A stretch of DNA of 64,000 nucleotides from a bacterium (lineage in GTDB: Bacteria > SZUA-182 > DTGQ01 > JAFGSM01). Under the pieces are notes generated by a model. The model saw nothing but the letters and a program-made list of their open reading frames with translations. It was not told where the DNA came from and did not search any database. The stretch covers positions 2,598 through 66,597 of the forward strand of contig JBLIRN010000015.1 of the NCBI GenBank assembly GCA_049472315.1, given 5' to 3'. A program made the position numbers and the translations under genes. Shown piece by piece: positions 1 through 14,112 of the stretch (its first letter is position 1; each line of letters starts with the position of its first letter).

Positions 1-2227
1 TCCCTTCGTACTGCATCGGGAAATCCCCGGATATGCCGTCCCATGTATGGATGAAGTAGTTGGTTGCTGGCTCGAATTCCCTGTAGTGGATGGTGACCGT
101 TCCACCTCCATTCTCTTTCTCCACCCCCACCACCTGTTTCATATAGCTATCGAAGGTGATGACGTAGGTGCCCGGTCCTGCGGTGACCGGGTAATCGGAG
201 GGGGGATACGCCTCATCCCAGGAGTCTGCACGGTGCGAGATCTTGAACCGGGGATTGTCCGCGCCGAAGGTCTGGGTGGTCTCCCACAGCCCCTCCGCGT
301 TGAGCATCATCGGCGTGGCCCCCCAGTTGTTGGGGGTTCCCCGGAAGTACCAGATATCCTGGATGTCCACCGCATTCTCGTACGTGGTGAAGGTGCCCCC
401 GGAATCGGCATACCCGTCGATGTCACCCAGGAACACCGCCTTGGAGCAAAACCCGTACAGGGTCCCCAGGCCGTAGTCATGCCTGTTCGAGTCGGATATC
501 GCCGGATAGGTTCCCCCGCCCATGAGGGCGTGGGCCGGGGTGCCGGAGGGGATGTCAATCCCCGAGTCCCTCAGATTGACGTGGATATTCAGGGTATCGC
601 CGCTGAAGTTGTGGCTGACCAGGATCATCTCCCCATAGTATTCCCTGATGATGGAGAGGGTCTTTGATTCGCCCTGGAGCCCGTCCCACGCGTTTCCCGA
701 GCGGGTGGGCACCACGTAGATGATACCTCCCCCAAGTGCGCGGTAGGTGTTCCTCAGCCTTAGAAGCCTCCGGTAATGGTTGAAGAGGGATGCAGGGTCC
801 GTTTCCTGCTGTAGTGCCCTGGACCAGTCCATGGGCAGGCGGATGGGCTCGTCCCCATCCCCGGCCCCGTTTGCCATGCCTATCTCTTCACCGTAATAAA
901 TGGCCGGGTTGCCCGAGAGGAGCAGGTACAGGGATGCGACCCCCTTCATCTTCGCCGTGTTGCCGTTGAGCTGGGTGGCCACCCGGTCGCCGGCGAACCG
1001 GTCATGGTTGCTCAGGAATATGGTGTCCTGGGTGCCGGGGGGGAGCCTCCCCTGGATGGCGTATACCTCCTGCATGAGGTCACCGGGCCTGCGTTCATTT
1101 TTGAGGCAGGCCATGAGCTTCCCCTGGAGGTTGAAGTGGAAGGCGGTGTGGAACTCATCTCCCTCACCGTAATACGCGATCATCTGATCGGGACTCTCGG
1201 TGGGGGCCTCTGCGAGCAGGATCGCGTCCTGCTTGATGCGCCCAAGCCTCCCCCTGAGGTCCTTCCATATCCGGTGGGTTTCAGGCTGGTCCTTCTGGGA
1301 TCCCCTGCCGTTTTCCACAAGGTAGCGGACCGCGTCGCAACGGAACCCGTCCACATCCGTTTCCCTGATCCAGTGGCGCATCACGTTTTCGAACTCATCC
1401 AGGAGTTCCGCCTGCGAGGCGGGTGCATTGAAATTCAGATCCGGCATGGTGGCACCGCCGGCGTCGCCGAACACGCTGTAGTAGTAATCGTCGTCATGGG
1501 GCTCCCCGTTGTGGTTTCTGTCCAGGTCCGCCTGTGGATCGAGGAACCATGTCGCACCGGAGATATGCCCTGACCGGTTCTCCTCCCAGGGGTCCGGCCA
1601 CCCGAGGTCGGATGCGGTCCATATGAACCAGTGATCCTTGCGCACTGCGTCGTCCGGGGAGGAGAACCAGGGGTGTTCCGTGCCGCAGTGGTTCATCACC
1701 AGGTCGAGGATGACCCGCATCCCTTTGTTGTGGGCGCCGGCTACGAGATTATTGAGATCATGTGCCGTTCCGTAGCGTGGTTCGATGGCGTAGTAATCGG
1801 TGGTATTGTATCCGTGCTCGCTCATGGCCTTGAATATGGGCATGAGCCAGATGGTCTTGACACCCAGCTTCTCCAGGTAATCGAGCCTGTTGGTCACACC
1901 CTGGAGATTCCCTCCGAAGCGGTCCACAAACACCTCGTAGATACTGGTCCGGGTGACCCACGGGGATTCAAATTCCAGGGCGGCGGAAGATGCCGACGCT
2001 TCACCGGATGCAGCGGCAGGGGCTGATCGCGCCTCCGGGCGGCGGCGCTCCGCGGCAAGTGTACCGGGCTCTGAAGGAATGCCGCCGGTTTCAAGCACCT
2101 CGCTCCCGCGGGTAGCCTCACGGTGTCTGACCATTGACTGCCTGCAGGCGGTGAGGGAGACGGAAGAGACACAGAAAAAAAGCAATGCCGAAAACAGGAC
2201 AATCCGGTTTTTCCCCTTTGTTCTCAT
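1..2227 (-). CDS. alpha-amylase family (GH13) glycoside hydrolase lipoprotein, partial (C-terminal end runs off window start)
   Basis: Absent from the ORF track because it is open at the window edge. Minus-strand translation from the ATG at 2227 gives a lipoprotein signal MRTKGKNRIVLFSALLFFCVSSVSLTAC. GH13 motifs follow: DLVMNHCG, GFRCDAVRYL, LAEAP, FLSNHD. A C-terminal beta domain continues in frame to position 1. Confidence 0.85.
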   Translation of the reverse strand, partial: MRTKGKNRIVLFSALLFFCVSSVSLTACRQSMVRHREATRGSEVLETGGIPSEPGTLAAERRRPEARSAPAAASGEASASSAALEFESPWVTRTSIYEVFVDRFGGNLQGVTNRLDYLEKLGVKTIWLMPIFKAMSEHGYNTTDYYAIEPRYGTAHDLNNLVAGAHNKGMRVILDLVMNHCGTEHPWFSSPDDAVRKDHWFIWTASDLGWPDPWEENRSGHISGATWFLDPQADLDRNHNGEPHDDDYYYSVFGDAGGATMPDLNFNAPASQAELLDEFENVMRHWIRETDVDGFRCDAVRYLVENGRGSQKDQPETHRIWKDLRGRLGRIKQDAILLAEAPTESPDQMIAYYGEGDEFHTAFHFNLQGKLMACLKNERRPGDLMQEVYAIQGRLPPGTQDTIFLSNHDRFAGDRVATQLNGNTAKMKGVASLYLLLSGNPAIYYGEEIGMANGAGDGDEPIRLPMDWSRALQQETDPASLFNHYRRLLRLRNTYRALGGGIIYVVPTRSGNAWDGLQGESKTLSIIREYYGEMILVSHNFSGDTLNIHVNLRDSGIDIPSGTPAHALMGGGTYPAISDSNRHDYGLGTLYGFCSKAVFLGDIDGYADSGGTFTTYENAVDIQDIWYFRGTPNNWGATPMMLNAEGLWETTQTFGADNPRFKISHRADSWDEAYPPSDYPVTAGPGTYVITFDSYMKQVVGVEKENGGGTVTIHYREFEPATNYFIHTWDGISGDFPMQYEG

Positions 2228-11823: not shown

Positions 11824-12006
11824 ATCTTTTATCCTAATGATTCCTTGGAGTTTTTGACATGCGGGAGCACACCACACATATCCCGGATGACGGCCGTGCA
11901 AGGGTATACGGGGTCCGAGGAATGACGGAATCGCATTTATTCTATAGCAGCGGAAAAGGAAAAGTCCAGCATACACAAAATGCATGAAACAGCCGGCGAG
12001 GATGGG

Positions 12007-12215
12007 AAATGGGGTCAGGTCTTGAATTGACAGTTTTTTCCCGGGTAAAGATTTTTATTTTTTGTTGCGAAAATAGATTTTCATGCTTCGTGGTGCCACA
12101 AAGTGGCATGAGCGTTTGCTCCGAAAATAGAATCATATTTTCATGCTTCTTGGTGCCACAAAGGGATATGAGCGTTTGTTGTTAAAAACTGTCAATTCAA
12201 GACCTGACCCCATTT
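12007..12215. repeat. MITE-like element: 32-bp perfect terminal inverted repeats (AAATGGGGTCAGGTCTTGAATTGACAGTTTTT) flanking a ~145-bp core with two tandem ~50-bp hairpin-containing direct repeats
   Basis: IR-L at 12007..12038 and IR-R at 12184..12215 are perfect reverse complements. The core holds DR1 at about 12068..12118 and DR2 at about 12121..12178. Both copies share GAAAATAG...TTTTCATGCTTC.TGGTGCCACAAAG.G.ATGAGCGTTTG, with an embedded GCCAC-AAA-GTGGC hairpin in DR1. Located between tsaC and the dikinase gene. ORFs 11942..12136(-) and 12143..12364(+) are artefacts of this repeat. Confidence 0.6.
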
Positions 12216-12284
12216 TGTTATGTCTGATTATTTACTATTTCGCCCGGGCACCCGGATGCGGGGCCAAAATGCACAGAGAGGCCC

Positions 12285-12905
12285 CTAGAGAAAAGGAAAA
12301 GGAATGCCCTTCCCCTCCCGCAGCACCTTCACCTCTTCGCCTGAGAGATCCACCAGGGTGGTAGGCTCGGTCCCGCAGAATCCACCATCGATGATGAGAT
12401 CCACCTGCCTGTCCAGCCGCTCCCGTATCTCCTCCGGGTCCCTCATGGGGGATTCGTCTCCCGGGATGATCAGGGTGGTGGTGAGCATCGGCTCGTGCAA
12501 CTCGGCAAGCAGGGCTTGAACGATGCGATGGTCGGGGATGCGTATCCCGATGGTCTTTCTCTTCGGATGCAGCAGCCTTCGGGGCACTTCTTTGGTGGCC
12601 CTGAGGATGAAGGTGTAGGGACCGGGGGTATTCGTCCTGAGGAGGCGGAAGACCGGGGTATCGAACCGCGCGTATATCCTGGCCTCCGAAAGATTCCTGC
12701 AGATGAGGGTGAAATTGTGTTTTTCGGTAAGGTTGCGAATCTGGCAGATCCTCTCCTGTGCGGCCTTGTCTCCGATGTGGCATCCGAGCGCATAGGTCGA
12801 GTCGGTGGGATAGACCACCACCCCGCCGTTGCGTATGATCTCCACCGCCTGATCAATGAGCCTTATCTGGGGAGTGTCAGGGTGGACCACCAGGAACTGA
12901 CTCAT
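12285..12905 (-). CDS. tsaC: L-threonylcarbamoyladenylate synthase (YrdC/Sua5/TsaC family)
   Basis: YrdC-domain motifs VVVYPTDSTYALGC and K..R..P.....LL. Length ~206 aa, typical of TsaC. Confidence 0.85.
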   Translation of the reverse strand: MSQFLVVHPDTPQIRLIDQAVEIIRNGGVVVYPTDSTYALGCHIGDKAAQERICQIRNLTEKHNFTLICRNLSEARIYARFDTPVFRLLRTNTPGPYTFILRATKEVPRRLLHPKRKTIGIRIPDHRIVQALLAELHEPMLTTTLIIPGDESPMRDPEEIRERLDRQVDLIIDGGFCGTEPTTLVDLSGEEVKVLREGKGIPFPFL

Positions 12906-13104
12906 CTTCTGACCTCATCCCTTTCATCTGAACATCTCCCGTCTTTTCTTTATCGTAATCCGGGGATTGCTCCGCAAGCACGCCGGGCATCATAACGGCT
13001 TGTGGTCCGATCGTGCTGGTGTAAGCTGTATCCCCCGGTTATGGCCTCTTCAGCGAATGCAGCGATGATTCTCCGCCTGTGTGCCCACGGGTGGATGCGG
13101 ATGC

Positions 13105-14112
13105 TCAGGTCTTCCCTTTGGACCCCAAGGCAGTACAGAGGGACTCCGCTGCAACAGAGATCCGGTTGCGCCCACCGTTTTTTGCCTGATAGAGGCCGTG
13201 GTCCGCATCAGCAATGACCTCTCTCCAGGAACCCTTGGCTGTGCAGTCGGCGATGCCTCCGCTTATGGTAACAACCTTAAAAGGGGTTTTGCAATGGGGA
13301 ATGGCAAGAAGCTCTATATCCTTGATGACCCGTTCGGCAAAGGTAACGGCGCCTTCCGGCAGGGTTTCCGGCAACAGGAGGAGAATTTCGTCACCGCCGT
13401 AGCGGTAGAGGCGGTCGACCTTACGGGTGTTGACCTGAAGGAACTCGGATATTCGTTTGAGGAGACGGTCCCCAGCGGGATGTCCATAGTGGTCGTTGTA
13501 GAGCTTGAAATTATCGATGTCGAAGAGCACCACGGAATAAGGGCGCCTGTACCGAAGGTTCAGGGCATGGGTAAGTTCCAGGTCCACCTCCATGGCACGG
13601 CGGTTTCCGATATGCAGGAGGGAGTCTTCAAGGGAGAGGGCCTTGAGTTTTTCATTTGCATCCATGAGTTCCCGTATCCGCTGCTCGATGGATTCCTCGA
13701 TGGAGGTTCGCTGTGTATCCAGTATGTGGAAATAGGCCTTGACCAGATCCGACTGGGTGATGAGCCCTGCAAGCTCACCCTTTGAGTCCACCACGATGAG
13801 GTGCCTGATCTTCTGTACCCGGGTGATGGAAAGGGCATTGAAGAGCGTTTCGGTATCGTTGATGGTTATGGGAGGCGATGACATGACGTTGTATGCCTTC
13901 TTGGTGGGTTTTTTTGCCTTGTCGACCACATCCGTGAGAAAGCGCACCAGGTCCCTCTCGGTGATGATGCCCAGGGGGACGTTTCGCTCCTCGATCACCA
14001 CGCACGAGCAGTTCTTTTCCCTCAGGACATGGAGGATATCCTGTATGGAGGTGTCCGGAGAAACGGAGACGACCTGGCAGGTCATCAGGTTTTTTATGAG
14101 AATATCCTGCAC
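13105..14112 (-). CDS. CBS-pair domain-containing diguanylate cyclase (GGDEF)
   Basis: N-terminal tandem CBS domains (VVSVSPDTSIQDIL..., VMSSPPITINDTETL...). C-terminal GGDEF domain with RYGGDEI active site and VVLFDIDNFKLYNDHYGHPAGD. Confidence 0.85.
   Translation of the reverse strand: MQDILIKNLMTCQVVSVSPDTSIQDILHVLREKNCSCVVIEERNVPLGIITERDLVRFLTDVVDKAKKPTKKAYNVMSSPPITINDTETLFNALSITRVQKIRHLIVVDSKGELAGLITQSDLVKAYFHILDTQRTSIEESIEQRIRELMDANEKLKALSLEDSLLHIGNRRAMEVDLELTHALNLRYRRPYSVVLFDIDNFKLYNDHYGHPAGDRLLKRISEFLQVNTRKVDRLYRYGGDEILLLLPETLPEGAVTFAERVIKDIELLAIPHCKTPFKVVTISGGIADCTAKGSWREVIADADHGLYQAKNGGRNRISVAAESLCTALGSKGKT

Follow-up and report, generated by a model that had tools for sequence, protein, structure and literature searches.

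Architecture and setting of the element

The stretch of DNA that we analysed, 64 kb long and hereafter called the window, carries a 209-bp repeat element in the spacer between a Sua5/YciO/YrdC (TsaC-type) gene and a gene for alpha-glucan water dikinase (GWD). Two arms enclose an AT-rich core of 145 nt, which holds a linker and two related internal units (Table 1). The hairpin of the first unit is intact; its counterpart in the second is degenerate (TGCCACAAAGGGATA). By dinucleotide-preserving shuffles of the window, no inverted repeat of this kind is expected by chance. The units also emerge as direct repeats, two 51-nt copies (12077-12127 and 12137-12187) that are 84% identical and spaced 60 nt apart. 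A 17-nt lead-in repeat recurs at a spacing of 54 nt instead of 60 nt because unit 2 carries a 6-nt insertion. The GC content of the element is 38.8%, against 55.4% for the window, and the window holds a single copy.

Table 1. Features of the element and of the spacer in which it lies (window coordinates).
Feature	Position	Strand	Remarks
GWD gene	8302 to ~11823	-	flanks the element; start taken from an annotated, 100%-identical NCBI MAG protein
GWD promoter-like site and leader	11824..11970	-	TGGACT-18-TAGAAT (11968..11939); context, outside the element
Small ORF, mirror-image	11942-12136	-	within the element region; without support as a gene
Outer left flank GGATGGGAAAT	12000..12010	+	resembles the family left-flank motif GGTGGYTT directly 5' of GGGG
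Left terminal arm	12007..12038	+	32 nt, 100% complementary to the right arm
AAAT	12007-12010	+	lengthens the arm pairing in the window copy only
Small ORF, mirror-image	12009-12185	+	within the element region; without support as a gene
Conserved 16-nt TIR core GGGGTCAGGTCTTGAA	12011-12026	+	inside the left arm; followed by linker TTGACAG-TTTTT
AT-rich inner linker TCCCGGGTAAAGATTTTTATTTTTTGTTGC	12039..12068	+	from left arm to unit 1; most other copies have TTTTTGTTCC only
Internal unit 1, 50 nt	12069..12118	+	GAAAAT..ATTTTCATGCTTC-GTGG-TGCCAC-AAA-GTGGCA-TGAGCGTTTG; unit HMM (nhmmer) E=1.7e-15
Unit 1 hairpin TGCCAC-AAA-GTGGCA	12094-12108	+	intact, 6-bp
Internal unit 2, 56 nt	12123..12178	+	6-nt AATCAT insertion; unit HMM (nhmmer) E=4e-12
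Right terminal arm	12184..12215	-	exact reverse complement of the left arm; core at 12196-12211
Outer right flank ATTTTGTT	12212..12219	+	kept beside family right ends and in the orthologous copy; unlike the left flank
Sua5/YciO/YrdC (TsaC-type) gene	12285-12905	-	flanks the element

No Y1 transposase is encoded anywhere in the 64-kb window (tblastn), and Pfam searches of the window genes and of the syntenic genes of a related genome found no transposase or recombinase within ~8 kb. Much of what an earlier note had read from the letters alone is borne out here: the perfect 32-bp terminal inverted repeats, the two core direct repeats of ~50 bp, the hairpin in the first of these, the position between tsaC and GWD, the lack of a transposase nearby and the spurious nature of the two mirror-image ORFs that the element creates. 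A scan for tRNA and tmRNA genes found none, and promoter- and terminator-like matches in the region are no more frequent than in shuffled sequence. The GWD promoter-like site lies ~40 nt from the element, and this site and its leader of ~100 nt are conserved across all three genomes compared and undisturbed by the element. Placed between the 3' end of tsaC and the undamaged GWD promoter, the element is most likely neutral. For annotation, the feature should be entered as a repeat element, its small ORFs as spurious, and the GWD promoter and leader as separate from it.

The window GWD has an 88% identical orthologue on scaffold JBLIRP010000049.1 of a related metagenome-assembled genome (MAG), 'bacterium MF1_202303_bin_233' (JBLIRP01; GCA_049472355.1; hereafter bin_233), and the gene order is the same in both genomes: GGDEF, tsaC, GWD, AP endonuclease, rhodanese. 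The bin_233 tsaC-GWD spacer holds the element at the same position and in the same orientation (locus L039, 3695-3828), with one unit against two in the window; the difference is a clean 60-nt indel, and unit 2 is the one that is missing. As the spacer is occupied in both, the insertion is older than the split of the window and bin_233 genomes. The window copy thus goes back a long way and has passed down by vertical descent, and the arrays of the two genomes now differ by exactly one unit. In a third relative (L040, GWD 79% identical), the spacer has no terminus and is longer and unalignable; we did not accept it as a clean empty site, as the insertion boundaries cannot be fixed there. No filled-versus-empty polymorphism was seen between close strains.

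The arms of the bin_233 orthologous copy differ from each other outside the 16-nt core (GAAATATCAG versus GAACTGTCAG). Perfect 32-bp arms are peculiar to the window copy, and the family strongly conserves only the first ~16 nt. The perfect pairing in the window may reflect conversion between the two arms or from another copy.

A dispersed family with shared termini

We scanned one genome per species for exact matches to a 21-mer of the terminus, GGTCAGGTCTTGAATTGACAG, and obtained 15 loci. Ten of these lay on nine scaffolds of bin_233, on which the exact 21-mer occurs 12 times; the others were found once each in Vicinamibacterales, Thermoanaerobaculia, Desulfobulbus alkaliphilus, Acetomicrobium hydrogeniformans and Aminicenantes UBA2190. 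The 21-mer was additionally present in 15 metagenome contigs. Within the bin_233 loci, 21 termini could be recognised with up to four mismatches, and a further scaffold contributed two more. This MAG therefore holds at least 23 termini on 10 scaffolds, arranged as eight doublets, several solo ends and nested groups. Doublets and solo ends (8 versus at least 5) were counted at seed-selected loci only. The window does not derive from bin_233 itself; the element aside, its DNA matched the bin_233 loci in only one gene, at 67% DNA identity. One Logan contig (L016) ends within the right arm. We did not take this end as a sign of multiple copies, because a 32-bp inverted repeat would by itself break a k=31 assembly graph.

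The copies share a modular layout that begins at the left end with GGGGTCAGGTCTTGAATTGACAG-TTTTTGTTCCGAAAAT, continues with the units and closes with the right terminus. The number of units is one in four copies (L001, L002c, L015 and the orthologous copy in L039), two in the window, L013 and L002a, and three in L006; taken together, doublets of bin_233 and the window hold one, two, or three or more units, each 50-78 nt long. Some copies carry optional extra modules, namely a 'tail' module, a heptanucleotide microsatellite or a variant unit. Solo ends with 0-3 units were found at L007 (twice), L010, L011 and L002b. We considered whether L007, where inverted ends of TIR plus unit enclose 3.7 kb, could be an autonomous element, and rejected this: the segment consists of ordinary genes (a PCC-domain protein, Ni-SOD and the like) and contains no transposase. 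Solo ends are often directed into the adjacent gene, and some units carry a perfect TATAAT.

A hidden Markov model of the unit recovered 23 good copies, all of them within such elements and all from bin_233 or the window, which makes the unit a feature peculiar to this lineage. Elsewhere, in other genomes and in soil metagenomes, the termini occur in unit-free forms, either as bare hairpins of 43-50 bp (L005, L008) or as nested inverted doublets of 57-121 bp. Taken over all forms, non-coding doublets with these termini measure from 43 to ~490 bp. The modules sit at many unrelated loci and in either orientation relative to the neighbouring genes. The copies appear extragenic, and the reading frames that cross them are short and spurious-looking. 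Conservation is 90.6% identity in the termini (non-seed copies) versus a mean column identity of 84% in the units.

The sequences just outside the termini are also conserved, and they differ between the two sides. Unit-proximal (left) ends are preceded by ..GGTGGYTT, with T at position -1 in all 14 cases and TGG[CT]TT in eight of the 14. The sequence beyond the right ends is ATTTTGT; read inward, it gives CAAAAT in six of nine right ends. Every complete copy has its units pointing from the GGTGGYTT flank towards the ATTTTGT flank. No target-site duplication (TSD) of any length is consistent across the nine complete copies. In IS608-type (IS200/IS605) logic, one flank is target sequence and the other is the end of the element. 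Distinct conserved outer flanks with no duplication do not suit a MITE moved by a DDE transposase and would agree with such logic. The outer left flank of the window copy is either target sequence or genuine element DNA.

Tyrosine transposase genes between the same termini

Genes that resemble RAYTs and are flanked by long TIRs, not by REPs, were described by Di Nocera et al. (2013; PMC3733652), who named the units TIRtrons and their enzymes TIRYTs. We find the termini of our family in this arrangement. In an Aminicenantes contig (L014), inverted termini at 11-33 (+) and 920-942 (-) surround an ORF of 285 aa (39-896). Its product passes the NCBIfam model NF047646, REP-associated tyrosine transposase, with 88.8 bits against a curated cutoff of 80, matches Pfam Y1_Tnp at 1.5e-13 and shows weak HTH_23 and HTH_38 matches at its C-terminus (residues 248-284). 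Over 8000 relatives of the protein are found in public data; many bear the label RayT, and on many of them precomputed annotation places HTH domains.

All relatives of this protein that we fetched (53-90% identity; L017-L023 and L041) are bracketed by the same motif or by one that has diverged together with the gene. In total, seven fetched contigs carry six distinct TIRYT genes, all from lineages other than the window's own, between inverted copies of the core or of a co-diverged version. The relatives on the fetched contigs are 88%, 85%, 67%, 58%, 58% and 53% identical to the L014 protein, and the bracketing 16-mers, unchanged or co-diverged, are AGGGTCAGGTCTTGAA, GGGGTCAGTTCTTTCA, GGTGTCAGGTCTTACA and GGGGTCAAGTCTTGCA. 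In the Omnitrophota case (GGGGTCAAGTCTTGCA), the flanks of the gene are themselves 87-bp inverted doublets. The span from core to core is exactly 932 bp in five contigs. Since TIRYT genes are bracketed by the core, the 'TIR' of the window is the repeat with which a compact tyrosine-transposase unit ends, and the element in the window amounts to two such termini minus the transposase gene. A tblastn search of the ~8-kb loci at which bin_233 carries exact-match termini found no TIRYT or other Y1 gene. The closest genome-derived TIRYT, P0012, is in a different assembly, at a contig end.

Many TIRtron TIRs share the motif GGGGWSAS; some form moderately abundant repeat families of singles, dimers and groups, and an especially well-defined TIRYT group belongs to the Acidobacteria (Di Nocera et al., 2013; PMC3733652). 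TIRYTs were later assigned to subclass 2.1 of TnpA-Y1, with a C-terminal HTH of the Bac_DnaA_C, HTH_23 or HTH_28 type (Quentin et al., 2018; PMC6006769). The start of the window terminus, GGGGTCAG (12011-12018), fits GGGGWSAS at 8 of 8 positions. The family described here shares several traits with the published repeats: the motif marks the outer end of its terminus, inverted copies enclose Y1_Tnp genes whose products carry a C-terminal HTH, the repeats are scattered as singles, dimers and groups, and relatives are strongly represented in Acidobacteriota. Thus, on every point that can be checked by sequence comparison, it appears to belong among the TIRtron/TIRYT repeat families. In contrast to the published bare TIRs and dimers, the dimer spacer here is a variable array of hairpin units with optional modules. 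A string search found the window terminus in no paper of the searched literature.

Collectively, we judge it probable, at roughly 0.78, that the window feature is a non-autonomous, extragenic copy from a repeat family built of TIRtron terminal inverted repeats. The parent TIRtron would span a compact 932 bp, with inverted GGGGTCAGGTCTTGAA termini on either side of a gene for a TIRYT. Enzymes of this type are RAYT-like tyrosine transposases (Y1/HUH, IS200 superfamily) that carry a helix-turn-helix at the C-terminus. In the element, the transposase gene would have been replaced by a short AT-rich core with a variable tandem array of 50-78-nt hairpin units. On single-stranded DNA, the arms would pair into a long stem, which a TIRYT supplied in trans could recognise and cut, and the element would be moved or copied without target-site duplication, much as has been proposed for REPINs and RAYTs. 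We infer such trans mobilisation, with single-stranded DNA as the substrate, from the parallel with IS608 and TnpA-REP. To our knowledge, no biochemistry on TIRYTs exists. Slippage or unequal recombination would be the simplest way for the array to change length. In many copies, pairing between the arms is imperfect beyond the core, which weakens the case for a required long stem.

The element is a fairly ordinary relic of selfish DNA, notable mainly for its variable hairpin-unit array. It does bear on a question that the literature leaves open, namely whether TIRYTs, a large and biochemically unstudied branch of the IS200/RAYT enzymes, build repeat families as RAYTs do with REPINs. Three observations support the idea: the 932-bp TIRtron itself, the occurrence of identical termini on bare hairpins and doublets in several phyla, and a lineage whose doublet has taken up a variable modular core. 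As a natural example, it is useful for the TIRYT question and will not surprise a specialist. The 16-nt core with its defined flanks makes a compact substrate for in vitro work.

Folding, alternative readings and known repeat systems

Folded whole as single-stranded DNA, the element reaches -53.4 kcal/mol (z = -10.1), a trivial consequence of its long stem. For the core by itself, the advantage over shuffles is marginal (z = -1.82 and -1.83 for the two strands). In the alignment of 23 units, one pair of the 5-bp unit hairpin covaries (AU in 8 units, GC in 5, CG in 2, GU in 2, unpaired in 6), and the observed covariation score was reached in only 1 of 500 shuffles, a comparison in which related sequences can beat every shuffle with no structural constraint acting on them. 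The units probably keep a small hairpin, for which this alignment is modest evidence.

Other candidate features of the units and stems were considered and set aside. A palindrome in double-stranded DNA, TTCGTGGC|GCCACGAA, pairs in 83% of cells and covaries as shuffles do (260 of 500). On inspection of the alignment, the outer TCATGC/GCATGA stem has variable columns without covariation. A sigma-54 promoter in the units, TGGCAT-N6-TTGC, is by inspection one base too long, and its TTGC is not conserved. A DnaA-box-like site, an idea that came from the DnaA_C-like HTH of TIRYTs, lacks conservation of CCACA, many units having CCGCG. In a permissive Rfam scan of 11900-12320, the sole match, to the plant miRNA precursor MIR2619 (32 bits versus a threshold of 113), is spurious and arises from the long stem.

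The earlier note had offered a structured regulatory RNA cassette as an alternative, and in a wider form this reading holds that the element is a host cis-acting or RNA element kept for its function in the tsaC-GWD spacer, whether as a paired small-hairpin RNA cassette, a stabiliser or terminator of an mRNA 3' end, or a stem-bounded array of protein-binding sites. Occupation of the same spacer in two genomes whose GWD proteins are 88% identical speaks for it, as do the covarying pair of the unit hairpin and, in the unit-forward direction, a long stem followed by the U-rich tail of ATTTTGTT; REP and BOX elements, moreover, affect the expression of neighbouring genes (PMC3733652; PMC3049150). 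Nonetheless, the stem and U-tail cannot terminate tsaC, because the element is antisense to both flanking genes in the window. No Rfam family (Rfam 15) reached its gathering threshold anywhere in the window, the core is not significantly structured, and promoter- and terminator-like matches do not exceed those in shuffles. Unit number varies between the orthologues, the hairpin of unit 2 is broken, and the same modules occur at many unrelated loci in both orientations to their neighbours. The covariance analysis suggested in the earlier note thus yielded one covarying pair, with no covariation in the rest of the 5-bp hairpin, and the RNA cassette finds little support. We regard a host element as improbable. 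The same note had reasoned that an element single in its genome and conserved only at the syntenic position would more likely be cis-regulatory than mobile; this criterion is badly posed, as the element is conserved at the syntenic site in bin_233 but is multi-copy elsewhere in that genome, so both synteny and multiplicity hold.

The note's preferred term, a non-autonomous miniature inverted-repeat element, stands insofar as the element is dispersed, extragenic and bounded by transposase-type termini, but fails in the usual MITE sense, since TSDs are absent and the termini are of Y1/HUH and not DDE type. The copy count and TSD search that it had proposed divided in the same way, with multiple copies in the related bin_233 but no duplications. 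A classical MITE would be an internally deleted derivative of a DDE-transposase IS that moves by cut-and-paste through its TIRs and leaves TSDs. Perfect 32-bp TIRs, a small size (<~300 bp), a non-coding sequence that is AT-rich relative to the host and a multi-copy family all agree with such an origin. Against these stand the lack of a consistent TSD across the nine complete copies, the differing consensus of left and right flanks, and the genes themselves: at no locus examined was a DDE gene found between the TIRs, and the sole gene between the termini is a Y1 tyrosine transposase (seven contigs, six genes, 53-100% protein identity). Accordingly, we hold a DDE ancestry to be very unlikely. 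More improbable still is an inverton, in which a site-specific recombinase would use the 32-bp repeats to flip a promoter-bearing segment and so switch GWD. Inverton families with one inverted-repeat consensus are known in Bacteroides, and here a gene does lie immediately downstream of an AT-rich 145-bp segment enclosed by perfect inverted repeats, with one weak promoter-like match in unit 2 directed at GWD. However, in every complete copy, and in the two orthologues, the units keep one orientation with respect to the asymmetric flanks; a recombinase gene is absent within ~8 kb; outside the element, GWD retains a conserved promoter-like site and leader of its own; and the number of promoter-like matches is not above that in shuffles.

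A further reading keeps mobilisation by a Y1 enzyme or TIRYT and assigns a function to the internal units, which would then be cargo spread by the miniature element. They could be sites for the C-terminal HTH of the TIRYT or for a host regulator, or small RNA or promoter modules. We consider this unlikely. If true, it would make the element a BOX-like regulatory cassette of tunable copy number, delivered by a tyrosine transposase and long co-inherited with the host.

Under the preferred reading, a TIRtron-derived repeat, the nearest parallels are other extragenic repeats. REPINs (Bertels & Rainey, 2011; PMC3116915), which RAYTs mobilise, are likewise non-autonomous, extragenic inverted doublets with a spacer that form a hairpin as single-stranded DNA, whose sequence flanks a single tyrosine-transposase gene, which are inherited vertically over long periods and from which singlets plausibly arise as decayed doublets. 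Unlike in REPINs, inspection of the 16-nt core shows neither an imperfect palindrome nor a GTAG or CGTC tag; the spacer is far longer and modular (145 nt here and up to ~450 nt), and the enzyme clade is that of TIRYTs and not one of the RAYT groups of classical REPINs.

In architecture, the element also resembles the boxA-(boxB)n-boxC repeats of pneumococci and S. suis (BOX; Croucher et al., 2011; PMC3049150). Both have end modules of inverted-repeat type around a tandem module of ~45-60 nt, a module copy number that varies between loci and between orthologous loci, optional extra modules, and an inner module that folds largely independently of the outer stem. BOX elements, however, are reported with TSDs and an IS-like TIR of DDE type (PMC3049150), whereas the family here has Y1 termini and lacks TSDs. 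The phyla are unrelated and there is no sequence relationship, so the resemblance is architectural only.

The BIMEs of E. coli are mosaics of REP sequences and linker motifs in which REPs of opposite orientation are joined by short linkers. Like the present family, they combine extragenic, transposase-recognised repeats with several kinds of intervening motif. In the present family, by contrast, a single inverted pair encloses non-REP units in direct tandem array.

Conserved sequences on either side of the element

Upstream of the gene for alpha-glucan water dikinase (GWD), we find a promoter-like TGGACT-18-TAGAAT followed by a non-coding leader of ~100 nt (..GCCGTCATTCCTCGGA..CGTATACCCTTGCACGGCCGTCATCCGGGATA..). 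Both are strongly conserved in three genomes, namely the window, the orthologous locus (L039) of the related metagenome-assembled genome bin_233, and a third relative (L040) whose GWD is only 79% identical. The leader matched no Rfam family at the gathering threshold, and it may be a cis-regulatory leader. On the other side of the element, a GC-rich stretch 3' of tsaC (GGCCCCGCATCCGGGTGCCCGGGC) is common to the window and L040, and in bin_233 it falls inside a 46-nt deletion. This stretch may be the stem of a terminator for tsaC.

Coordinates of the features in the window and in related contigs
Feature	Location	Strand	Detail	Counterpart
Promoter-like site and leader upstream of GWD	window 11824-11970	-		L039 3862-4000; L040 about 1082-1300
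GC-rich stretch	window 12239-12264 (+ strand coordinates)	minus-strand reading	just downstream of tsaC stop	L040 about 800-820
Logan contig L016 (SRR14699991)			100% identical	window 12191-13276
Downstream termini compared	L018 3359-3420			L019 2603-2660
Two solo left-type ends, inverted orientation	L007 1985-5684 (bin_233 scaffold_19)		terminus followed by 2 units at one end and by 3 at the other
Extra modules in bin_233 copies	L002 1660-1740, L003 1440-1530; L003 1260-1330, L009 560-660

Units bearing the TIRYT transposase gene

The unit bearing the gene for TIRYT, a Y1/HUH tyrosine transposase, has one and the same core-to-core length, 932 bp, in five contigs (L014, L017, L018, L019 and L041). 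As the proteins share 67-100% mutual identity, this length is unusually rigid for such sequence divergence. L018 and L019, which come from two samples, have identical TIRYT proteins and upstream flanks, whereas directly past the downstream terminus the former carries ATTCACT repeats and the latter ATTCTTGCTCT repeats. The comparison suggests a variable microsatellite or a rearrangement at this end.

Variation in termini, modules and layout

In soil bacteria (metagenome contigs L030-L032 and L038), the terminus takes the form of nested double inverted repeats in which GGGGTCAGGTCTTGAA-TTGACAGTTT-GGKGCCAGGTCTTGA is paired with its mirror image, and each arm therefore holds two related 16-mers in tandem. 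Some bin_233 copies of the element contain further optional modules, among them a GC-richer 'tail' (..CCTATGCTCTTAATA..GGGTACGGGGG..) and a heptanucleotide microsatellite, (TTCTACA/TTCGACA)n, which adjoins a variant unit with the hairpin GAGCC-GAA-GGCTC.

At another bin_233 locus, L007, two inverted solo ends enclose ~3.2 kb in a layout resembling that of a composite transposon. The genes in this segment encode a PCC-domain protein, a Ni-superoxide dismutase and others, with no transposase among them.

Finally, the short-read contig L016 stops within the right arm of the window's element, an illustration of the break that the inverted repeat causes in k-mer assemblies.
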